A stretch of 64,000 nucleotides of DNA from a virus. Lineage: Duplodnaviria; Caudoviricetes. The stretch spans positions 208,471 to 272,470 of the IMG/VR virus record IMGVR_UViG_3300038443_002533; one strand, 5' to 3'. Position numbers and translations under genes: made by a program. The notes below the pieces were generated by a model. That model was not told the origin of the DNA, searched no databases, and worked only from the letters and a program-made list of their open reading frames with translations. Shown piece after piece: positions 1,269 to 36,780 of the stretch; the first letter of the stretch is position 1; every line of letters begins with the position of its first letter.

Positions 1269-2645
1269 ATGCAACGTCATTTCAAACCGCTGCCCGTACC
1301 AGTACCTACGCTGGAGTTGTCACTGGAAGAAGAAGCCATTCTGACCGATGAAGTTCGCCAGAACGAAAACGAACTGGAACAACAGGCAAACGACGTCGAT
1401 CAACTGGGTGACATCATCGTTACCATGGGGGACGTACAGACCGTCGTGTCCAACACCCCCGAAATAAAAGCCATCGACCAAGCGCTGGTTGGCGCGACTG
1501 CCGATGCCGCTGTAGCGGGTACGGATGCCGATCCGGAAGATCTCGTCGGTAGCATGCTGCCCGACGAAGGCGTCAGCGCCGAGAGCTTCGTGCAGTCCAT
1601 CAAAGACACGCTGGTCAAGATGTGGGAATCGATCAAGTCGGTCATCAGCAAAATGTGGGACCACATCAAGACGTTCTTCCAGAACATCGCTAACTTCTTT
1701 AACGGCACCAAGCGCCGGATCAAGAAGCTGCAAGGTATCTTGCATGACAACTCTTTGTCGGGCGCGGCTGTACTCGAAGATGACAAATTCAAAGGCAACC
1801 CAGCCTATCTGCTCATCCCCAACCGAAACGGACGCCAAAACGGCGGGGTGGCGTTCAGTGCGCCTCACTCGGTCAAAGAGGAGTACGAGGCGTTTGCCGA
1901 AGTCGCCATGAACACCTGCGTCTGGCTGACCGCTGGCGGCCGTGATCTGATGCAAGTCACGGGTAAGATGGGTGAGAAGTTCAAGAACGTCTCTGACATG
2001 GAAGCGGACTATTCGGGCCTCGTGAAAGAGGTTCAGGATGGTTTGGCGGAGCTGGACAAAGCACTGCGGGTGGGTTACAAGAACACCGGCGGCAACAGCG
2101 AACGCTCTGGCCACGCGCTGATGGGTGGTCTGCATTTCAGTGGTCTGGGGATTGAAAATAGTGGCAGCACCCTGACCAAGACGCTGGAATTCCTGAACCA
2201 GATGAAATACAAGGTCGAGTCGGAAGTCGCCGAGAACCCGAAGACGTATGTCGTGCGGCTTACCGGCAAAGTCGACGACGTCAAGGCCATGCTCAAAACG
2301 GCCGAAGAATGGGTGCAGATGGGCGAAGCCAAGAAGATCATGTTCGAGACCTTGGTAAAGCAAGCCGAGACGGCGCGCAGCCAGATCGACAACGGGCTGA
2401 AAGGGTTGAAAGAGCAAGACCAGCTTACGCCGGAACGCAATCGTGAACTGAAACTCATGATCTCGCTCAACGGCAAAATCAACTCGATCGTTACCAAGAC
2501 CATCTCGGGCATCGTGACTCATGGCACCCACGTCACCAACGCGGTGCTGGACTACTCGATCGAGTCGGTGGAATCGATGATGGGGGTTACGAAGACGGGC
2601 GGTATCCATAAGGGGCCGGCAAATCCTTTCCCGAAAACAGCTTGA
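1269..2645 (+). CDS. Internal head/virion protein with acidic propeptide (phiKZ internal-head paralogue family)
   Basis: Acidic N-terminus (SLEEE, ENELE), then GVSAESFVQSIKDTLVKMWESIKSVISKMWDHIKTFF. S/A/G-x-E matches the phiKZ prohead-protease consensus. Confidence 0.75.
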   Translation: MQRHFKPLPVPVPTLELSLEEEAILTDEVRQNENELEQQANDVDQLGDIIVTMGDVQTVVSNTPEIKAIDQALVGATADAAVAGTDADPEDLVGSMLPDEGVSAESFVQSIKDTLVKMWESIKSVISKMWDHIKTFFQNIANFFNGTKRRIKKLQGILHDNSLSGAAVLEDDKFKGNPAYLLIPNRNGRQNGGVAFSAPHSVKEEYEAFAEVAMNTCVWLTAGGRDLMQVTGKMGEKFKNVSDMEADYSGLVKEVQDGLAELDKALRVGYKNTGGNSERSGHALMGGLHFSGLGIENSGSTLTKTLEFLNQMKYKVESEVAENPKTYVVRLTGKVDDVKAMLKTAEEWVQMGEAKKIMFETLVKQAETARSQIDNGLKGLKEQDQLTPERNRELKLMISLNGKINSIVTKTISGIVTHGTHVTNAVLDYSIESVESMMGVTKTGGIHKGPANPFPKTA

Positions 2646-2648
2646 CCG

Positions 2649-2685
2649 CATAGCTCCCGCTCCCCTTCGGGGTAGCGGGAGTATG
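2649..2685. terminator. CATA...TATG-closed hairpin between convergent genes
   Basis: CATAGCTCCCGCTCCCC-TTCG-GGGTAGCGGGAGTATG; T-rich run follows on the + strand. Confidence 0.7.
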
Positions 2686-2690
2686 TTCGT

Positions 2691-3047
2691 CTATTTCTTT
2701 TTTGGCCACACGGGCAGGGGTACCGATTTGCCAGCGAGATGGTGCGGGCTATCGGTACAGTATTCAATGCGGCCTTCGACAATAAAGTAGTGGCACGTCG
2801 TGTACGACACGCGTCGTTCGCGTTCTTCTAAGTTACGGGGTGCGTTGGAGCTGATCCGCATCGAGGGGTAGAACGAGGGTTGTTGGTAATCGTGGTTGAA
2901 TGTCCAACCGATATTTTCATGGAACAGGGTGTATTGGTGTACCTCATCGCACGCTGGGCATAGGTGGCAGTAATACCAGCGCTTATTAAAATCGTTAAAA
3001 AAGCGCCGTAGATACGGGCCCACTTGTTCCATCTCATCATATCCCAT
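2691..3047 (-). CDS. DUF6527-like small Cys/His protein
   Basis: HLCPACDEVH, WTFNHDYQQPSFYPSM and CHYFIVEGRIEYCTDSPHHLAGKSVPLP match the recalled family pattern CPGC..H...WTFNG....PTF.PS...CHSFV.DG.I.FL.DCTH.LAGQTV.LP. Confidence 0.65.
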   Translation of the reverse strand: MGYDEMEQVGPYLRRFFNDFNKRWYYCHLCPACDEVHQYTLFHENIGWTFNHDYQQPSFYPSMRISSNAPRNLEERERRVSYTTCHYFIVEGRIEYCTDSPHHLAGKSVPLPVWPKKK

Positions 3048-3099
3048 CGTTTTCCCCTTTGCGGTTTTTTAGGCAAAGCCCCTCATAGTTTTTGAACAG

Positions 3100-3143
3100 C
3101 ATAGTCGCCTCTCTAGGACCAACCGGTCCTAGAGAGGGCTATG
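3100..3143. terminator. CATA...TATG-closed hairpin
   Basis: CATAGTCGCCTCTCTAGGACC-AACC-GGTCCTAGAGAGGGCTATG directly after the helicase stop (- strand). Confidence 0.65.
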
Positions 3144-3146
3144 GGC

Positions 3147-5198
3147 TTACCACCGCAGTGATGCAGGCTGGGTAATACTGGGTTCCACCAGCTCAGTAAA
3201 TCCTTCTTGACTGAGCAAATACGTCAAGACTTCGATCCCTTCGGTGGCCAGTTGATTCTCATCCACCGCAATCCCGAGAATCGTTTCGACTTGTTTCCGG
3301 CTCCAGTCGAGAATGTCATCCGAGCGGGTCGACAGATTCGGCTCGTTACCGGTGTCGAGCGTGACGGTGACGAACTTGATCGAACCATCTTGTCCTACTC
3401 GGTCGATCCGCGCCTCGGTTTGATCCAATTCTCCCGAACGGAACGGTCGGTTCATCATCATCGCGGTCGATGCCATGATAAGCGGGACTGCCGTCGAGAG
3501 CGATTGGAAGGTCGCGATCAAGGGATTGGCGTCTTCCATCTTGTCGAACGTATTGATGATGTTCGGCAGATCATGGTTGGTGAGACCATACACCCGCAAT
3601 GGATTGTAACCTTTCTCCTTGAGGATGTCATGGATCCGATCCACCACTTCGATGTAACTCGTAAAGATCACGGTCTTCTTGCGGGCACTGTCGATCACGG
3701 TTTCGTAATCCACATGACTGGCCAGATCCAGGTTACATTGCATCCGCCGTTTGCCCAGAATCCGCCCGAGCGCTTCGCCTTGGACTTTGAGCTTGTAATA
3801 CTTGACCACCGACTTGGCGTTACGGAATTGATCCTTGAGCGGCTGGACGAGATGGGCGATGATTTCCTTCTCGTAAGCGTTACAGAACTTCGATTCTTCT
3901 TTCATGGTCTCCGGGTCGTAGTTCTGGCGAATCATCGTCACGTACCGCTTATACGTGCCGTAGCGGGCTTCTTGATGGGGATCATGGCGAATGATGTTTT
4001 CCCACACCCCAAGACCGGCGAAATAGTCTTGTTCGTACTTCTTGAAGTTGGTGCGGTAGTATTCCATCCGCTCCGCCACGAACTCACGCATCTCCAGCGA
4101 CACCGCTTGCAGTGTGTATTGCTTCCCGTTGGGGATCTTGATCGGCAAGTCTTCGCGGGTGATCTCATTCTGGATGACCTTGGCCTTGGTCACGCGGTGC
4201 ACCAGATAACCCAGACGGTTGGCCAGGATATCCAAACCTTTCGAACTGGACTTACCAAAGATCGCGATGAAGCGTTCTTCTGCGTTGCGGTCAAAGAACG
4301 GGTCGATGGTCTTCAACAGCGGCACCACTTCTTTACCGATGGCCTTAATCGGGGTCCCTGACATCCATAGTACATGCTGGGCCTTGAGCGACTCGCGACA
4401 GAGTTCGATGAACAAGCGCGTGCGCAACGAATCGATCTCGTTCATGTTGTGCGATTCATCCAGGATCACCGTGGGTTTGCGTCCTTGGTACGTCTTGAAG
4501 AATTCCACCGCCCGATCGAGTTGCTCGTAATGGAACACGTAAAAGCGTTTGCCCATCACCAGCGGTTCGTTCGACGAGGATACCCAGAATGGCACCGGGG
4601 TCTTGTAAATCGTAGCCAACGTCGCAGCCCACACCCGGTCCAATGCATTCTTCGGGGAGATCACCACCGTGCAATCCGAGTCGAGGCATTCCGACCACGC
4701 AATCGAGTTGATGGTCTTACCTGTGCCGGGATCGGCAGCCAGCATATAGCCTTGCAGATTGAACTGCGGCACCTTCTCGTTGTAGGTGTGCAGGAACCCC
4801 ATCTGGGTGTCAAACAGCGTCGCGGTCAGCCGGTTGAGGTTATGGAAGTTCAAGATGTCCGGGAAACGCTCTGTGGTGCGTTTAAACCAGGTTTCCCGAC
4901 GCAATTCTTCCGCGGCCTTACGGATGGCCCGGTAATTGTAATTCCCGCCCCTGGGCGTTTCTAAAATACTTTCCAGTGTGTAGATGACTTCCGGCAGAAA
5001 GAACTTGTGGAAGACCACGTACGAACTGGTGATTTTGCTGAACATGTTCAGCCCGATCTTGGAGGTGCGCCAGATGCGCGCCAAGTCGTTGGTGTATTGG
5101 TAAGTGGGCAAGCCTTCGATCCGGATGAAGTTCCCTTCTTCCGAGACATGAATCGTGCCAATCATTTTGCGCAAGTTGCTCAGCAACATCCTTGCCAC
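3147..5198 (-). CDS. SF2 (SNF2/DEAD-like) helicase
   Basis: Walker A ADPGTGKT, Walker B DESH, motif III SGTP, motif VI-like QTEARIDRVGQ. Confidence 0.9.
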   Translation of the reverse strand: MARMLLSNLRKMIGTIHVSEEGNFIRIEGLPTYQYTNDLARIWRTSKIGLNMFSKITSSYVVFHKFFLPEVIYTLESILETPRGGNYNYRAIRKAAEELRRETWFKRTTERFPDILNFHNLNRLTATLFDTQMGFLHTYNEKVPQFNLQGYMLAADPGTGKTINSIAWSECLDSDCTVVISPKNALDRVWAATLATIYKTPVPFWVSSSNEPLVMGKRFYVFHYEQLDRAVEFFKTYQGRKPTVILDESHNMNEIDSLRTRLFIELCRESLKAQHVLWMSGTPIKAIGKEVVPLLKTIDPFFDRNAEERFIAIFGKSSSKGLDILANRLGYLVHRVTKAKVIQNEITREDLPIKIPNGKQYTLQAVSLEMREFVAERMEYYRTNFKKYEQDYFAGLGVWENIIRHDPHQEARYGTYKRYVTMIRQNYDPETMKEESKFCNAYEKEIIAHLVQPLKDQFRNAKSVVKYYKLKVQGEALGRILGKRRMQCNLDLASHVDYETVIDSARKKTVIFTSYIEVVDRIHDILKEKGYNPLRVYGLTNHDLPNIINTFDKMEDANPLIATFQSLSTAVPLIMASTAMMMNRPFRSGELDQTEARIDRVGQDGSIKFVTVTLDTGNEPNLSTRSDDILDWSRKQVETILGIAVDENQLATEGIEVLTYLLSQEGFTELVEPSITQPASLRW

Positions 5199-5241
5199 CC
5201 TTGGAAGTATTTTTTAGTTAAAAACAGAGTGACATATAACA

Positions 5242-5277
5242 CCCACTCTCTAGCCACACAATAGGCTAGAGAGTGGG
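5242..5277. terminator. Stem-loop between DnaB and SF2 helicase
   Basis: CCCACTCTCTAGCC-ACACAATA-GGCTAGAGAGTGGG, a 14-bp perfect stem. Confidence 0.6.
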
Positions 5278-5296
5278 GTGGGTGCTGCGTAGGAAC

Positions 5297-6868
5297 TTAG
5301 ATCATCATGTCGGAACCGTTGAAGTCCCACACCGGGTTTTCACGGGCACTGCCAATCGGACCCGCCCCAGGCTTACGCAGCGTGGTATCCGGTCCGTCTA
5401 CATCGTCGAGCAGGTTCCCGACTTCCTGCATCGCCCAAGCGGCGTAGCGATCGATCATTGGGGTCTGTCGGGTCTTACGGTGTTTGCCCCGTTGTCGGGT
5501 CAAATACGCCTTACCGTTCACATACTCGATGTGTTGGAACACTTCGAGATCGACTTCCTGGTCCAGACGCTGGGAGCCGTCATACATGCCTTTGCCGGGC
5601 AGCGTGCGGACCAAGTTCGCCGTCCCTTCCCGCACGAGCTTCTTGGCGTCGGACGAGAGCTGGTGCGGTGTGACGAACAGAATGTGCCGTGGGGCGCAGA
5701 AGTTACGAATGCGGCGGAACATGTCACGGATGTCGGAACCGGCCGTGGTCATGATGCAACCGGTGGTCGGCAGCATCGCCAGGTAATCGACGAACAACGC
5801 CACCACTTCGTAACCATCGGCTTCCAAGGCCAGGACTTTGTTTTGCACGTCCAGGTAAGTCCAGCCCGACGGGTTGACCCGCATCATGCGAATATAGAAG
5901 CCCGTGGCTTGCATCCGCGGCATGATGTAGTCAGCCAGATCTTCTTCGCTCAAGCCCGTCAAATCCGGCAGGGTCTTGACCGCGTCTTCTTTATGCTCGT
6001 TGCAATGGAACTGTTCGTAGAGGAACTGGAAGTTTTCCTTCAAGCTGTCTTCGAACGAAATGCGCAGCAGCAACGGCTTCTTGGCTGGGTTACGCAGTAC
6101 CGGGGTGTTGTACACCGCGATATGACGGAACTCGGTCAGATTCCCGCCGGTCTTGAAGTTGTGCGCCAGCGCCGCTGGACTGATCACGGCTTCGCCGCGG
6201 CGATAGCCACCGTCGAGCATGCGGTTCATGCCTTGCAGACCTAGGCGCAGGATCGTGCTGCCTTCTTCGCCTTCCTTGACCGCTTGGAACACGTTGGCGA
6301 CCTGCTCGCGTTTGCTGAAGTCGACTTCATCGACCACTGCCGGATCTTTCTCGATGTGGCTGGTGGTGTACGGCTCCAGCATCTCGCGCAGTTCCATCGC
6401 GAAGGTGTTCATCGAGTGGATCTTGGCTTTGTTGAACTTCACCTTGCTGAACGCGTCGGTGATGATCTTCTCGACTTCCTTGTTGCGGAAGTAATTGCGG
6501 ATCTGGTTGCGCAGGTTGATGCAGGTCCGTTTCAGCGCCCCTTCGGACAGTTCGGGCATAATGCCGCCCTGGAGGGCTTCGTAGGTGATGTCATCATCGC
6601 CGCAATTCATTTTGAGGCGTTGCAGCAATTCATTCGGCTCGTACTGATGGTCGTAGGGGTTACAGGCCATCATGTAAGCGGTTTCTTTCAACCCCATCAA
6701 GACTTCGGTGCCGCGGTCTTTGATATCGCGCCCCAGGCTCACGTCAGGGGTTTTGACTTCTTCCACGACCTTCAATACATCTTCCGCAGAGTTATTGGTA
6801 TGACCCACTTGCTGGCTCTCGCGGTAGAGTAAACTGATCGCGCTGACAAGCAAAAGTTGAATGTTCAT
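5297..6868 (-). CDS. dnaB: DnaB-like replicative helicase (phiKZ gp118-like)
   Basis: Variant Walker A (ALAHNFKT), Walker B ALFVDYL, TPHQLS, DQEVDLE, RGKHR arginine finger; divergent from the MCP block as recalled for phiKZ. Confidence 0.85.
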   Translation of the reverse strand: MNIQLLLVSAISLLYRESQQVGHTNNSAEDVLKVVEEVKTPDVSLGRDIKDRGTEVLMGLKETAYMMACNPYDHQYEPNELLQRLKMNCGDDDITYEALQGGIMPELSEGALKRTCINLRNQIRNYFRNKEVEKIITDAFSKVKFNKAKIHSMNTFAMELREMLEPYTTSHIEKDPAVVDEVDFSKREQVANVFQAVKEGEEGSTILRLGLQGMNRMLDGGYRRGEAVISPAALAHNFKTGGNLTEFRHIAVYNTPVLRNPAKKPLLLRISFEDSLKENFQFLYEQFHCNEHKEDAVKTLPDLTGLSEEDLADYIMPRMQATGFYIRMMRVNPSGWTYLDVQNKVLALEADGYEVVALFVDYLAMLPTTGCIMTTAGSDIRDMFRRIRNFCAPRHILFVTPHQLSSDAKKLVREGTANLVRTLPGKGMYDGSQRLDQEVDLEVFQHIEYVNGKAYLTRQRGKHRKTRQTPMIDRYAAWAMQEVGNLLDDVDGPDTTLRKPGAGPIGSARENPVWDFNGSDMMI

Positions 6869-28218: not shown

Positions 28219-28294
28219 GTAAGAAAAATACTGACGTATCACATTGACTGGGTAGACATACCTGGTTGGATAACTAACAACAAAGGATATTTCC

Positions 28295-29599
28295 ATGACT
28301 GCAACTCAAACCCCTTTCACCTTGCAGAACGATTTCTCCAAACTCAAGATGACGGGTGAAGCAGCGACGTTGCCGCTTTACATCGATCTGGCAATCTTCG
28401 ACCTCATGGCCGACGGCCGCAAACGTTCGATCAATGAAGTCGTGAGCGCGCTCGCTGTGCTGGGCTACATGCGTAAGGATGTCAACCGTCGCATGGTGGT
28501 CATGCTCCACAAGAGCAAAACCTTCGTGGAAGCCGCGGGCGGTAAAGGTAAGGTGTTGTACGAAATCAAGAAGGGCGCCACTCGCCCTGACTCATTCGCC
28601 ACTACCAAACCCCAACACGTCGTCAAGGAAAGCGACATCGTGCTGGAACCGCAAGCCCGTCTCATCCCCGTCACGCATCGCAAGCGTCGACACATCGATC
28701 TCCAGGAGTTCACCATGCAACCTCACACCACCCCCTCGCAAACCCCGGCACCGCTGTTCACCACCACCGAACCGGAACCGACGCCGGTCGAATTGGCCCG
28801 CCAAGACGTGGCTGCCGAAATCGCGCGGGTTGAACTGGAAGCGACCCACGTCAACCCGAACGACCCGGTCCGTGTCGGCCTGTGGAAAGTCATGGCCGAT
28901 CACGCCTGGTACAAGTCGACCGACCTCGTGACCCTGTTGGCGGATTTCTACCCGTCCGACATCGTGCGCTATCACCTGCGTCAGATGGTCAAGACCAATA
29001 TGGTGGAGGTCGATGAATCGAGCGCCCAGACGCACAAGTACCGCCTGAACGAAGGTGTGGCGATGCCGGAAGGTTTGGAACCGTACAAACCGAAAGCCTC
29101 GACCACCCCCGCCCCGCAACCGCAACTCCCGCTCAACCAGGAACCCGAGATGAAAACCAATATCGAAATGCCGGCGAAAGCTTACCTGAAGTCCCCGCCA
29201 GCGCCGCTGGCCAGCCCGCTCGAAGAAAAGCCGATGATCGACACCAGCAGCAACCAAGCAGCGGAACCGTTCAACCAGTTCAAGAACCCGGACGAGCCGC
29301 AACAACCGGCAACCACTCTGCTGGATCTGGTTCAAGCGTCGACCAAAGACAAACCGAAGGACGTGCCGCTGGTCGAGGTCGGCGGCATCAACGTTCTGGG
29401 TCAACGCTTCTCCTACCGTGAGGCCCGCGAACTGCTGGCTGAACTGAAGACCGAGGGTTACGGTACTGTCCATGGCGTCGTCGGCCATCGTGCCGGTAAG
29501 CACATCACGGTGCGTTGGTCGGTGACGATCGGTACGGTGCAAGTCACGCCGCACCAAGCCAACGATATCGCACTGTCGTTGATCGACGAACTGGAATAA
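28295..29599 (+). CDS. Multi-domain protein with two winged-helix-like repeats and Pro-rich linkers
   Basis: Repeat 1 AIFDLMADGRKRSINEVV...KVLYEIK; repeat 2 GLWKVMADHAWYKSTDLV...THKYRL. Confidence 0.6.
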   Translation: MTATQTPFTLQNDFSKLKMTGEAATLPLYIDLAIFDLMADGRKRSINEVVSALAVLGYMRKDVNRRMVVMLHKSKTFVEAAGGKGKVLYEIKKGATRPDSFATTKPQHVVKESDIVLEPQARLIPVTHRKRRHIDLQEFTMQPHTTPSQTPAPLFTTTEPEPTPVELARQDVAAEIARVELEATHVNPNDPVRVGLWKVMADHAWYKSTDLVTLLADFYPSDIVRYHLRQMVKTNMVEVDESSAQTHKYRLNEGVAMPEGLEPYKPKASTTPAPQPQLPLNQEPEMKTNIEMPAKAYLKSPPAPLASPLEEKPMIDTSSNQAAEPFNQFKNPDEPQQPATTLLDLVQASTKDKPKDVPLVEVGGINVLGQRFSYREARELLAELKTEGYGTVHGVVGHRAGKHITVRWSVTIGTVQVTPHQANDIALSLIDELE

Positions 29600-29879: not shown

Positions 29880-30098
29880 ATGGCTACCATGGATAACGCA
29901 GAAGTCCTGCTGGCAAAAGCCCAGTTCGCGCAACGTAACATCGCTCTCGTGGCGAATAAATGGGGCGAGGATTCGGAACTGGTCGAGATGGCGAAGGAGC
30001 AGTTCGAGCATTACTTTAATCTCGCATCGGAAGCGTACAACCAAGTCTTGGGTGAAACCATGACCCGGGTGGAACAAATCCTGCAACAACTTCATTAA
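29880..30098 (+). CDS. Hypothetical helical protein
   Basis: AAGGAG RBS; 72 aa. Confidence 0.6.
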   Translation: MATMDNAEVLLAKAQFAQRNIALVANKWGEDSELVEMAKEQFEHYFNLASEAYNQVLGETMTRVEQILQQLH

Positions 30099-30103
30099 GA
30101 GAG

Positions 30104-30147
30104 CATAGAGACAGGGGTTCGTCCCCTGTCTCTGGGCTTTTTTATTT
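30104..30147 (+). terminator. Intrinsic terminator abutting the promoter repeat
   Basis: AGAGACAGGGG-TTCG-TCCCCTGTCTCT, then GGGCTTTTTT. Confidence 0.7.
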
Positions 30148-31926: not shown

Positions 31927-32745
31927 ATGAAAAACTTTAATATCCGTGACATCGGCAGCTTCTCGCTCCTCTTCATCAACCTGCTGACGCAGGGTATGCG
32001 GATTCGCGATCTTCGACTCGATCAACTGGAAGACAAGTTGGTCGAGTATTACGAACCTCTGGTCAGCAACAAAGGGCACGCCAAGCATCTCGCGTATATC
32101 GCCTACAACCGTTTCTTGAACGGCAACCTCGACGTCCATCACGCTGGTGTGATCATGGAAGCCCTCAATATCCGCATCGACATCGCTATCTCGCGCCTGG
32201 AAGATGCCGCCCCGAACATCGAGGTCGGGGCACCTTACCCATCTATCTGGGATCAAAAGATCGACGCCCTGGGTCTGCAACCGCGTACGGAGAATGTTCT
32301 GCTCACGGAATCGATCCATGGTCAGCCAGCGAACGGGCTCGACTATGTGGGTCAACTCGTCAGCAAGTCCACCCTAGAGTTGCGGGAATACCCAGGACTG
32401 GGTTCCGCGGGGATACAAGACATCATCTCGCGTCTCGCGGCGGTCGGGCAGAAGCTCAACACCGATACAGGTGGCTGGAAACCCCCTGCCGCTGAATCGA
32501 CGATTGATTATGAACGGTTCTCGTTACCAATCTCGGCGCTGTCCGAACTGGTCGGGTATATCGGCGGTACGCTGAAAAACAACAGCATCGAGTTCATCGG
32601 CGATCTGGTGAGAATGAAACCCGAAGACCTGGACGCCATCCCTGGGATCGGGAAAGTCTCCCAGGAGAAAATCCTCGCCGCACTGAAGAAGCGTGGTCTG
32701 GAACTCGGGATGGATGTCGGTTATTGGAGACCGAACAAAAAATAA
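31927..32745 (+). CDS. Protein with two tandem RNA polymerase alpha-CTD-like domains
   Basis: C-terminal LPISALSELVGYIGGTLKNNSIEFIGDLVRMKPEDLDAIPGIGKVSQEKILAALKKRGLELGMDVGYWRP aligns by eye to RpoA CTD ([29 protein letters not shown]...[31 protein letters not shown]). A more divergent copy precedes it. Confidence 0.85.
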   Translation: MKNFNIRDIGSFSLLFINLLTQGMRIRDLRLDQLEDKLVEYYEPLVSNKGHAKHLAYIAYNRFLNGNLDVHHAGVIMEALNIRIDIAISRLEDAAPNIEVGAPYPSIWDQKIDALGLQPRTENVLLTESIHGQPANGLDYVGQLVSKSTLELREYPGLGSAGIQDIISRLAAVGQKLNTDTGGWKPPAAESTIDYERFSLPISALSELVGYIGGTLKNNSIEFIGDLVRMKPEDLDAIPGIGKVSQEKILAALKKRGLELGMDVGYWRPNKK

Positions 32746-32764: not shown

Positions 32765-32965
32765 ATGTCGCACCTGCAACCGAACTTCATCGCTAAGAAC
32801 AAAGCGCGTATCCGGAATGCCCATGCGCCGCGTTCGATGCCGCGTAGCATGATCAAGAAGGAAGCCGCTCGTTACCCCATGGCTGACTGGGGCGGTATTC
32901 CGGACAACATGTATTACAGCTGGTGCGACGTCATCAACCACCGAATCTTCACACTCCGTAAGTAA
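32765..32965 (+). CDS. Small basic hypothetical protein
   Basis: AAGGAG RBS; 66 aa. Confidence 0.55.
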   Translation: MSHLQPNFIAKNKARIRNAHAPRSMPRSMIKKEAARYPMADWGGIPDNMYYSWCDVINHRIFTLRK

Positions 32966-32967
32966 AA

Positions 32968-33019
32968 GTGTTCTACTATCCGCTTAGCAATAGGCGGTTA
33001 GTGGAAGTGCTTTTCTTTT
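32968..33019 (+). terminator. Imperfect hairpin with T-tract
   Basis: TTCTACTATCCGC...GCGGTTAGTGGAA followed by GTGCTTTTCTTTT. Confidence 0.5.
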
Positions 33020-33031
33020 ACAGGAATAAAA

Positions 33032-33289
33032 ATGACTTTACCTGAACGTATACGCAAAGATCGACCCATGAACCGCGCTCTGGCGGAACGCTTGCGCATG
33101 GTGGATTTTCTTCTGGATCATTTTGGGTTTTTCCAACGTAAACATCTCATGGATTACTTTGGGATCTCGCCCGTACAGGCATCCAATGATCTCAACGAAT
33201 ACCAGCATTTTGCGCCGACGAATATGAGATACGACGTCAGCGCTCGTATGTACCGCAAAACTGAAAATTTCAAACGTTTATTTCCTTAA
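33032..33289 (+). CDS. Stand-alone CapW/BrxR-type N-terminal winged-helix domain (no WYL/WCX)
   Basis: ERLRMVDFLL..FG...RKHLMDYFGISPVQASNDLNEYQHFAPTNMRYDVSARMY....F..LF matches the recalled CapW/BrxR pattern ERL.FIDF.L...G.I.R.DL...FGIS..QAS.DL..Y...AP.NL.YD.S.K.Y.....F.P.F. Confidence 0.8.
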   Translation: MTLPERIRKDRPMNRALAERLRMVDFLLDHFGFFQRKHLMDYFGISPVQASNDLNEYQHFAPTNMRYDVSARMYRKTENFKRLFP

Positions 33290-33294
33290 CAAAA

Positions 33295-33702
33295 ATGACC
33301 ACTGAGACCCAACTCGAACTGCAATTCCTTCCGGAAGATGGCCCGGAGACCTGCCTGTGGAAAGCTATGCATGGACAAGACTGGCTCAGCAGCCCGCAAA
33401 TCATGGCGCGCTTGGAAGAAGCGGGATGCCGCTTTGCCAGGGTGACCATGCGTAACAAACTGGGCAGCTTCTCGCGCGACATCATGGAAACCCGGCCGAT
33501 GCCCAATACTCCCAGCATCTACCGGAGCGCCAAGCAATACCGCTTGATTGCGGGTAAACCCATGCCCGATAATCTCGACCCGAAAGGGCGGGGTCCGCGC
33601 AACACTTCGGAAGACGACAAACGCATCGAACGTCAGAAAGAAAGCATGACGGCGGCGGTGGATCAAATGTCGGCCATGATGATGATGTTCGCTAAACGCT
33701 AA
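33295..33702 (+). CDS. wHTH-like paralogue A
   Basis: LPEDGPETCLWKAMHGQDWLSS, shared with the next gene. Confidence 0.55.
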   Translation: MTTETQLELQFLPEDGPETCLWKAMHGQDWLSSPQIMARLEEAGCRFARVTMRNKLGSFSRDIMETRPMPNTPSIYRSAKQYRLIAGKPMPDNLDPKGRGPRNTSEDDKRIERQKESMTAAVDQMSAMMMMFAKR

Positions 33703-33718
33703 CAATAATAGGGGTGCC

Positions 33719-34120
33719 ATGAACACTTTAATCAGCTTAACCGTGTTGCCGACGGACGGCCCCATCACGTGCTTGTGGAAGTGCATGTATGGGAAAGGCT
33801 GGATGACGGGTGCCGAAGTCGTAGAAGCGGCGCAGAAGACCCATTACGCCCCCATGACGCTATATCGCATCTTGGGCAAGGTCTCACCCGAGCTGATGGA
33901 GCGACGTAAGTCGAAACGCGCCGAGAGCCGTGGTGGGGCTTGTGAGTACCGGGTGGTGGAAACTTCGACCCCACCCACCGAACGCATCCGCGCCACCAAG
34001 CAACAGATAGAAAGCTGCACAGATCGCCGTGCGGTGGCCGAACACGGTGTGCGTCGGCGTGCCAAGCGAGGAGCAGGTGAAGTACAACGTGTCGTGTGGG
34101 CTTCCAAGTACGCGACGTAA
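33719..34120 (+). CDS. wHTH-like paralogue B
   Basis: LPTDGPITCLWKCMYGKGWMTG; basic C-terminus. Confidence 0.55.
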   Translation: MNTLISLTVLPTDGPITCLWKCMYGKGWMTGAEVVEAAQKTHYAPMTLYRILGKVSPELMERRKSKRAESRGGACEYRVVETSTPPTERIRATKQQIESCTDRRAVAEHGVRRRAKRGAGEVQRVVWASKYAT

Positions 34121-35007: not shown

Positions 35008-35352
35008 ATGAAAACCACCCGTTACAACATGGACAAGGTCCAGCAACTGCCGGAGTACAATCCGGCTGACTACCTGAATGACAAGCAAAGCGCGGCGAAT
35101 GTGTTGAACGAGTTATTCATGACGGAAGACTCGGCGCCGACAATCGCGTACATCCTCGGCGAGCTGAGCCGGAAACACGGCATGTCGGAAGTCTCGATCC
35201 ATAGCGGCATCAAGCGTGAATCGCTGTATCACGCCCTGCGCAAAGACCCCAACTCAAAGCCGCGGTTCGATACCATTTTCAAGGTGATCAACGCCTTGGG
35301 TTTCGAACTGATGGTCGTGCCCGTCAACACCACCCCGGTCTCGGGCAAATGA
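35008..35352 (+). CDS. Orphan addiction-module antidote (HI1420-like XRE HTH)
   Basis: YNPADYL...LGELSRKHGMSEVSIHSGIKRESLYHAL....KPRFDTIFKVINALGFEL matches the family pattern (D.ADYL...ARARGM..VA...GL.RE.LY.AL....NP.F.T..KV..ALG..L). Confidence 0.8.
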   Translation: MKTTRYNMDKVQQLPEYNPADYLNDKQSAANVLNELFMTEDSAPTIAYILGELSRKHGMSEVSIHSGIKRESLYHALRKDPNSKPRFDTIFKVINALGFELMVVPVNTTPVSGK

Positions 35353-35797: not shown

Positions 35798-36010
35798 ATG
35801 TTTACACTGAACGAAGAAATCAAAAAACGTATTGATGAGAAGGCAGGTCCGAATTCTCCGGATTTCTGGTCACAATTTCTCCGCGCTCGCGCCTACTTCA
35901 TCGCCTCGTGCCGAGAAGCTGGGCAGACCGATGCGGAGATCTTCGCCTCCCTTTACATGGACGGACCACAACACGTGACGCGCATCCGTCAAGGTCTCAG
36001 TATCGAATAA
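35798..36010 (+). CDS. Hypothetical protein
   Basis: Leader motif; 70 aa. Confidence 0.6.
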   Translation: MFTLNEEIKKRIDEKAGPNSPDFWSQFLRARAYFIASCREAGQTDAEIFASLYMDGPQHVTRIRQGLSIE

Positions 36011-36015
36011 GACAA

Positions 36016-36055
36016 CATAGCACCCTCCCTGCCTTGCGGCGGGGAGGGTGCTATG
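36016..36055. terminator. CATA...TATG-closed hairpin between the convergent accessory and fibre/lysis blocks
   Basis: CATAGCACCCTCCCTGCC-TTGC-GGCGGGGAGGGTGCTATG. Confidence 0.75.
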
Positions 36056-36060
36056 ATCAC

Positions 36061-36780
36061 TTATTTTTTTGCTTCTTTGGAGAGCAACTCGTCTTTGGGC
36101 CAGTACACGAGGAACTTGGCTTGACGTGCTTCCACCCGACCCGGGTACTTACTGTTGATCATGCAGAACGATTCACCGTAGCCCGCGACCTTGACATTGG
36201 CTTGCGGGCATTGCTGATCGAGATGACCGAACCATTGATCGGCTTGACACCCTGGCGTTGTCCGGCACGAACGGATGCGTTTGGTCACACTTCCGAACCC
36301 GCCGTTATACGTGGCCCCATCGCACGCCTTGATGTTACGGTTCCCCGACAGTACCGCCCGACAGTTGCGCTCGTTGACTTTCATCTTGAGCACCAACCCG
36401 CGGAGCTGGTATTGTGCGTTGTAGCAATCGGCCCAGGTCCAACCCTTCAGTGTTGGGTCGAGCCGTTTGGTTTCTTCCAACGCATCAAAGCGCACATTGC
36501 CTTGGGCATCGTACGCTTTAGTGAACTGACCCAGACCACAACCAAACTCGCGTGAGGTCTTCAAGGTAGCTTTGATCTTCCAGTTCGACTCTTGGTCGGG
36601 AATCGCCGCCATCCAACTGCGCGGGGTCAGATCCGGCCAGTAAGTCTCGATCTCGTGATTGAGAATCGGCAGACCACTGGCGGCATCCCCGGGTAGCTTC
36701 TGCGCGAAGGCGCCGGTAACGGCGAGCACGTAGAACAGAAAGAACATCGCCACCCCGACGATGATGTTAGCGACCCGCAT
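36061..36780 (-). CDS. SLT-family lytic transglycosylase with N-terminal membrane/signal segment (endolysin candidate)
   Basis: MRVANIIVGVAMFFLFYVLAVTGAFA leader; catalytic DQESNW, GLGQF, TYNGG motifs; several Cys. Confidence 0.8.
   Translation of the reverse strand: MRVANIIVGVAMFFLFYVLAVTGAFAQKLPGDAASGLPILNHEIETYWPDLTPRSWMAAIPDQESNWKIKATLKTSREFGCGLGQFTKAYDAQGNVRFDALEETKRLDPTLKGWTWADCYNAQYQLRGLVLKMKVNERNCRAVLSGNRNIKACDGATYNGGFGSVTKRIRSCRTTPGCQADQWFGHLDQQCPQANVKVAGYGESFCMINSKYPGRVEARQAKFLVYWPKDELLSKEAKK

Follow-up and report, generated by a model that had tools for sequence, protein, structure and literature searches.

A stand-alone BrxR/CapW-type winged-helix gene in a chimallin-encoding jumbo phage, and the phage family of sensor-less DNA-binding domains to which it belongs

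Bacterial chromosomes and phages appear, on comparison of their sequences, to be sharply divided in the form of BrxR/CapW-type regulator that they encode: the chromosomes carry the full three-domain protein, whereas the phages carry the DNA-binding domain only, and do so as a large family. Many anti-phage systems are under the control of WYL-domain repressors, among them CapW, BrxR and related proteins, and surviving cells are primed against phage counter-defenses when this repression is lifted. CapW is a CBASS-associated repressor composed of wHTH, WYL and WCX domains, and BrxR is a repressor associated with BREX and defense islands. The phage protein that is the subject of this report is encoded within a window of 64,000 nucleotides, which represents the last 64 kb of a 272,470-bp virus record that has direct terminal repeats, is estimated to be complete, and was recovered from a rhizosphere metagenome. 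No description of stand-alone or phage-encoded BrxR/CapW wHTH proteins was found in the literature searched, which was incomplete in its coverage. The gene and its putative ribosome-binding site lie as follows.

33032..33289, + strand: stand-alone BrxR/CapW-type winged-helix gene, 85 aa; the alternative start Met13 at 33068 gives 73 aa.
33022..33025, + strand: Shine-Dalgarno-like AGGA, 6 nt 5' of the ATG at 33032, from reading of the sequence.

Read directly from the sequence, the frame at 33032-33289 (+) extends from an ATG start over 85 codons to a TAA stop, and with the AGGA 6 nt upstream the initial annotation was correct in describing an ORF with its own ribosome-binding site and a clean stop. 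In the public annotation this frame begins at Met13, which gives a product of 73 aa. Residues 1-12 of the 85-aa protein are unconserved among its relatives, and the domain runs from about residue 13 to residue 85. The secondary structure consists of helices at 15-31 and 36-43, a recognition helix at 47-60, and a wing formed by strands at 65-68 and 73-76, right behind which the protein stops.

The 85-aa ORF is a BrxR/CapW-type winged helix, and the homology is far above chance. In a phmmer search of the PDB the best match is P. aeruginosa CapW (7tb5; E 1.5e-13, query residues 18-85 against chain residues 25-92), with further matches to S. maltophilia CapW (7tb6, 2.3e-8), E. fergusonii BrxR (7qfz, 3.3e-8), 9c5g, and 7t8k. 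An HMM comparison with CapW/BrxR N-domains, which had been proposed as a check on the identification, gave an equally clear answer: a model of N-domains taken from 24 full-length members recognizes the 33032-33289 frame at E 5.9e-28, as the sole copy in the 272,470-bp genome. With an alignment of 56 sequences, AF2 predicts a canonical winged helix (pLDDT 93.3, pTM 0.82); this model was used instead of the single-sequence one, which was poor (pLDDT 67). When the structure was compared with the PDB by Foldseek, the top 15 matches were all BrxR/CapW wHTH domains (TM 0.75-0.85, rmsd 0.5-1.4 Å), and the match after these was IclR at E 0.01 and TM 0.54. Precomputed tables label the product as PF26109, WHD_BrxR. 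The ORF is blank in hmmscan searches against Pfam, NCBIfam, PADLOC, and PHROGs (for Pfam and PADLOC even at E 10), and these scans are uninformative because PF26109 was absent from the Pfam copy used. The assignment to the CapW/BrxR N-terminal wHTH, made initially from the letters alone, is thus borne out by phmmer, the N-domain HMM, and Foldseek, all of which agree. The same winged helix is found in the CapW proteins of P. aeruginosa PA17 (7TB5), S. maltophilia (7TB6), and R. leguminosarum (9C5G), with an rmsd of 0.5-0.7 Å for CapW and, for the Pseudomonas protein, 46% identity over about 70 residues. The best structural matches are the BrxR proteins of E. fergusonii (7QFZ) and Acinetobacter (7T8K/7T8L), at TM 0.79-0.85.

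With respect to membership in the wHTH-WYL-WCX regulators, the wHTH is present, the WYL sensor is absent, and so is the WCX/dimerization domain. An HMM of the WYL-WCX region, made from 24 full-length members, has no match when the complete 272,470-bp genome is searched in six frames (best E 0.71, and none nearby); as a control, the same model scores between E 1e-43 and 1e-68 on full-length loci. The statement that no WYL/WCX coding sequence lies downstream, originally made for the immediate surroundings, therefore holds genome-wide. In comparison to CapW, the phage protein is without the WYL and WCX domains and the linker helices, is phage-encoded, and has no adjoining CBASS operon. Relative to BrxR, it corresponds to the first of three domains only and is without the domain-swapped WYL/C-terminal dimer, and there is no BREX or defense island beside its gene. 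A syntenic ortholog is carried by L002, a metagenomic contig from a related phage, with about 67-68% identity over 72 residues, and the comparison of the two genes gives a pN of 0.25 against a pS of 0.89; the synonymous sites are therefore saturated and the selection is purifying. The gene itself is intact. A frameshifted WYL remnant downstream, which would have made a pseudogene of the ORF and had been raised as a reason for doubt, does not occur in any frame, and with purifying selection this candidate explanation was discarded.

The residues that contact DNA are also retained. In the ungapped phmmer alignments, R20 aligns with R17 of BrxR-Efer, and R36, S46, Q49, and S51 align with R32, S42, Q45, and S47 of Sm CapW. 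In the full-length proteins, mutation of these BrxR-Efer and Sm CapW residues abolished both DNA binding and repression. R20 is hence the counterpart of a residue essential to BrxR, and the query keeps all four of the CapW residues, including R36, whose equivalent R32 is conserved in CapW and not in BrxR. According to column statistics, the five DNA-contact residues are kept in 78-99% of the stand-alone members and equally in the full-length group. The same statistics identify seven positions that separate stand-alone from full-length proteins, namely 15, 22, 27, 30, 31, 38, and 82. The full-length proteins have E22, R27, W30, E31, and D38 where the stand-alone proteins have R22, L27, H/Q30, Y/F31, and A38, and the alpha1-alpha2 face is charged and Trp-bearing in the full-length regulators, whereas it is hydrophobic in the stand-alone clade. 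It is on this face, at positions 22, 27, 30, 31, and 38, that the query differs from CapW, as well as in belonging to a separate clade. From the set of clade residues Y15, R22, L27, H/Q30, Y/F31, and R82, the query has R22, L27, H30, F31, and R82, and its position 15 is R15, not the Y15 of the clade.

The altered face coincides with a predicted site of self-association. Prediction of a two-copy complex gave a score of 0.59, compared with 0.11 for the best of three controls. The calibration set reached the mark in 20 of 30 cases for proteins whose solved structure is a one-chain pair and in 1 of 23 for those solved as a single chain, counts that hold only roughly since a custom alignment was used. 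The runs share at least 85% of their contacts, with a partner pLDDT of at least 87, and five of the seven clade-diagnostic positions fall within the predicted interface (22-23, 26-27, 30-31, 35, 38, 41-42). In the solved CapW/BrxR dimers the wHTH domains lie side by side, and the pass may reflect memory of these structures. The two-copy prediction supports self-pairing via the alpha1-alpha2 face. The initial annotation had cautioned that full-length proteins dimerize through WYL/WCX and that the isolated domain might bind weakly; the remodeled face, with its predicted self-pairing, answers this in part, although as a predicted dimer only.

The phage protein belongs to an extended family. An exhaustive HMMER search of 1.84 billion representatives returned 500 matches, and the best 50 or so of these are nearly all 65-170 aa in length with the domain at the C-terminal end; full-length proteins of 280-300 aa first appear at E ~6e-9. 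For the family pattern search a narrower alignment, A2, was used, as alignment A1 was too diverse. In IMG/VR, every one of the 26 loci found with this pattern is stand-alone and lacks a WYL-WCX within 4 kb, in a set that includes near-duplicates and also jumbo contigs of 187-315 kb. Gene 088 of Stenotrophomonas phage Sonora and the genes of contigs L002-L005 are stand-alone too. With the same kind of pattern, 15 of 19 loci in GTDB genomes are full-length; of the four that are stand-alone, three correspond to prophages predicted in IMG/VR. Among 301 sampled Burkholderiaceae genomes, 31 of the 33 matches fall in frames of 263-372 aa, and the other two are a known prophage copy and a fragment at a contig end. 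Sonora is the only match among 50,697 cultured phage genomes, a megablast search of the 4-kb neighborhood against cultured phages gave no match, and nothing was found in an IMG/VR scan with the single protein as query. The BFVD adds one structural match, in Pantoea phage LIET2.

A tree of the domain, which is weakly resolved (157 rows, 80 columns), places 88 of 105 stand-alone rows, the query included, in one pure group with an SH-aLRT of 78. The stand-alone or full-length label changes 9 times on this tree, as against 44 in shuffles, and several of the nested 'short' singletons are evident truncated fragments. Stand-alone WHD_BrxR thus appears, from sequence relationships, to be a mostly pure and old phage/prophage clade that lies apart from the host regulators. 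The survey of phages and bacteria for stand-alone homologs that had been suggested at the outset gives a consistent result: those of phages are stand-alone and those of bacteria are mostly full-length. The concern that the homologs would turn out to be mostly fragments of bacterial genes is answered by a coherent phage/prophage family, and the pure stand-alone clade of complete small ORFs contradicts that reading.

Several members are found in unusual arrangements. In L026, a 107-kb viral contig, two stand-alone WHD_BrxR genes lie in tandem (3962-4219 and 4207-4437). In L056, the gene at 4863-5300 encodes a fusion of an XRE/CI-type HTH to a stand-alone WHD_BrxR (protein P0020), within an integrative element that has integrase genes and a primase. 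An alpha-CTD-like fusion was suspected in P0024, but a Pfam search of the N-terminal extensions of the longer homologs gave no significant family. In L051, the WHD_BrxR gene at 1470-1700 is located two genes upstream of an AcrVA2-like (PF26125) gene at 2163-3131, in an abutting run of genes on the same strand. Elsewhere, the few annotated neighbors of homologs comprise AcrVA2-like, DNA methyltransferase, H-NS-like, and Lar-like genes, the Lar-like match being below Pfam's cut-off. Across 38 loci there is no conserved neighbor gene beyond related lineages, nor a conserved operator.

The genome that harbors the gene encodes a phiKZ-type RNA polymerase beta, a virion structural protein, and a helicase, together with a homolog of chimallin, the phiKZ nuclear shell protein. 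The latter lies outside the window (G000:C1:60674-62296, in L058) and is found at 24% identity and E 1.5e-15 in a 687-aa frame. The chimallin homolog and the phiKZ-type RNA polymerase mark this virus as a divergent chimallin-encoding jumbo phage, and we infer that it forms a phage nucleus. Chimallin is also found in three of the five other jumbo contigs that carry a stand-alone WHD_BrxR gene. The gene and its surroundings contain the following features.

32879..33309, + strand: low-GC accessory cassette, running from the 3' end of the upstream ORF through a hairpin and the complete wHTH gene into the first bases of the ORF that follows.
32960..33017, + strand: A-tract, 16-bp imperfect hairpin, and U-tract, from folding; terminator-like for the upstream 68-aa ORF.
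31927-32745, + strand: tandem RNAP alpha-CTD-like protein with two HhH modules, PF03118 E 2.7e-13.
33295-33702 and 33719-34120, + strand: adjacent paralogs with 33% identity, E 9e-15, and no family match.
35008-35352, + strand: HigA-type antitoxin or XRE repressor, PF21716 E 7e-21, phrog_4268.

The wHTH gene is a recently acquired, dispensable low-GC cassette in this chimallin-encoding phage. In a relative of about 95% identity, represented by a root metatranscriptome contig, position 32878 is joined to 33310 with 185 other letters between, and this relative is therefore without the wHTH gene; it is only the gap-joining contig that counts here, and missing contig cover over 33042-33275 (runs X2 and X4) was set aside. 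The gene has a GC content of 45.0% in a genome of 54.8%, and genome windows of its size fall below it in only 1.9% of cases. The low-GC block extends over about 32900-33300, and at third codon positions the GC3 of the gene is 48% against 60-81% in its neighbors. A conserved leader of about 20-28 nt (ATAACCAACAACAAAGGATATCAACATG-like) precedes at least 8 genes of the surrounding island, between window positions 28270 and 35797, with examples at 28270, 29684, 30513, 30756, 30998, 31468, 31902, 34127, and 35771. The wHTH gene is without this leader, which fits a foreign cassette.

With regard to the neighbors themselves, the protein of 31927-32745 is without an N-terminal alpha domain and is conserved in L002. 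The two paralogs share an N-terminus of the form 'DGP.TCLWK.M.G..W', a motif that recurs at 28878-28909, inside the 434-aa ORF at 28295-29599. The HigA-type antitoxin of 35008-35352 has no recognizable adjoining toxin, and L002 also retains it in the vicinity of the wHTH gene. PADLOC, Pfam, and PHROGs scans of the neighbors in the window revealed no defense genes and no known anti-defense gene. Most of the island between positions 30000 and 37000 is represented, in two root metatranscriptome libraries, by contigs from relatives with 90-95% identity to this phage, which is a record of presence and not of transcription.

The imperfect inverted repeat upstream of the gene had been put forward as a candidate operator. 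The repeat at 32971-33006 does exist, with 16-nt arms that match at 13 of 16 positions around a 4-nt spacer, and two of the three arm mismatches are G-U compatible. As RNA, 32960-33017 folds with a dG of -25.8 kcal/mol (z -5.5), which none of 200 shuffles equaled, and the orthologous locus in L002 has a different hairpin and T-run in the same place. The repeat is thus better read as a terminator-like RNA hairpin than as an operator, and the operator assignment was rejected in view of the flanking A- and U-tracts and the lack of conservation in the L002 ortholog. Strong hairpins with T-runs are also found at gene ends at 30096-30144 and 36006-36065.

As for its mode of action, a wHTH that stands alone, with its DNA-contact residues intact and without WYL/WCX, would be a functional, ligand-independent DNA-binding protein. 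Pairing through the alpha1-alpha2 face may present the two recognition helices of a homodimer to a palindromic operator, in the place of a dimer held by WYL/WCX, and, with no sensor, ssDNA would not release the binding, which would make the protein a constitutive repressor. The likely targets would be host promoters with CapW/BrxR-type operators that control defense or stress operons, and keeping such operons shut would represent a counter-defense or host-takeover function. In a phage with a chimallin homolog and phiKZ-type RNA polymerase subunits, the phage DNA is probably shielded and transcribed by the phage's own enzymes, and we therefore regard host DNA as the most likely target. A host-directed repressor of CapW/BrxR operators, looser variants of the idea included, is the reading that we tentatively prefer, with somewhat less than even confidence; the target is its unproven step. 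Its narrower form, in which phages maintain a family of sensor-less, self-dimerizing copies that occupy WYL-controlled defense operators (CBASS, BREX, and others) and block induction or 'priming', is unlikely, though far from negligible. A role against host defense is favored by the homology of the domain to defense repressors together with the missing sensor, by the dispensability and horizontal acquisition of the gene, by its occurrence in phages with unrelated transcription programs, by neighbors of anti-defense or host-takeover type elsewhere, and by an island that also holds the alpha-CTD protein and the HigA-type antitoxin. Against it, the old and separate stand-alone clade gives no indication of a recent capture for operator mimicry, and the absence of a full-length homolog from three of the four bacterial genomes that carry a prophage copy weakens the operator-mimic reading. 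The Sonora copy is no closer to the CapW of S. maltophilia, its host species, than to that of P. aeruginosa. WYL repressors are operator-specific and show no crosstalk, and a single phage protein would therefore have to be matched in specificity. Furthermore, CapW- or BrxR-dependent induction is dispensable for blocking a first infection; the benefit to the infecting phage is consequently not evident, which counts against the host-defense reading. The proposal of the initial annotation, an uninducible repressor of host defense operons, thus retains its domain identity, missing sensor, and intact gene, whereas the specific mimicry of CapW/BrxR operators is weakened by the separate clade, the lysogens, the Sonora comparison, and the lack of crosstalk.

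The protein may instead serve the phage or mobile element itself, as a small and autonomous regulator that represses early or accessory operons (for example, anti-defense operons) from operators on phage DNA, in the manner of Aca proteins. This is possible, if on balance rather unlikely. A clade that is old and separate is in keeping with phage regulators of long standing, and the gene is found among small early genes in arrays where the stop of one gene often overlaps the start of the next. Certain members are carried by temperate elements, close to integrases, and one forms a fusion with an XRE/CI-type HTH; the position of another, two genes 5' of an AcrVA2-like gene, is like that of Aca genes, and the three lysogens without a host full-length homolog point the same way. 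The likeness to Aca extends to the query, as a small stand-alone HTH protein in a phage accessory gene array and hence a candidate for working like Aca, and to the homolog that shares an operon with the AcrVA2-like gene; the query differs in having no known acr beside it and no promoter operator identified. Aca proteins we take to belong to a different HTH family. Regulation of phage genes is made less probable by the lack of a conserved palindrome or partner gene across the family, by the fact that the only adjoining inverted repeat behaves as an RNA hairpin and is unconserved in the ortholog, by the span of the family over very different transcription programs, including chimallin jumbo phages with their own RNA polymerases, and by the absence of the gene from a close relative, which indicates that it is not a core regulator.

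Three other explanations bear on the same evidence. A host-takeover DNA-binding protein that targets promoters or nucleoid sites of the host with no relation to CapW/BrxR-controlled defense operons would be at home in an island with other stand-alone parts of host regulators (the tandem alpha-CTD and the orphan HigA-type antitoxin), an arrangement conserved in L002, and one homolog adjoins an H-NS-like gene. However, the CapW/BrxR recognition-helix residues are kept as often as in full-length regulators, which points to a similar operator architecture and not to general binding, and we consider this explanation improbable. In CapW, each WYL domain interacts chiefly with the wHTH of the opposite protomer, and it is on this contact that one could picture a free wHTH docking on the host CapW/BrxR dimer and disturbing its switching. 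Such protein-directed action seems very improbable, in that self-pairing is predicted for the very face that departs from the full-length proteins, and the conserved DNA-contact residues would be needless for a pure protein binder. Finally, the foreign composition of the gene and its absence from a close relative could be those of a decaying, functionless fragment of a captured bacterial regulator gene, but the intact frame with its ribosome-binding site, the purifying selection against the 67% identical syntenic ortholog, the lack of any WYL remnant, and the large clade of complete small ORFs with a conserved C-terminus leave this with hardly any likelihood.

Stenotrophomonas phage Sonora, with its gene 088, and S. 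maltophilia, with a characterized CapW and operator, provide a cultured system that is already at hand. If host operators are bound, phages could freeze immune gene expression, and no report of such a counter-defense was found in the literature searched. If it is phage DNA that is bound instead, these proteins would make up a new family of regulators that is widespread among phages, and the host regulators may perhaps have drawn their DNA-binding domain from it.
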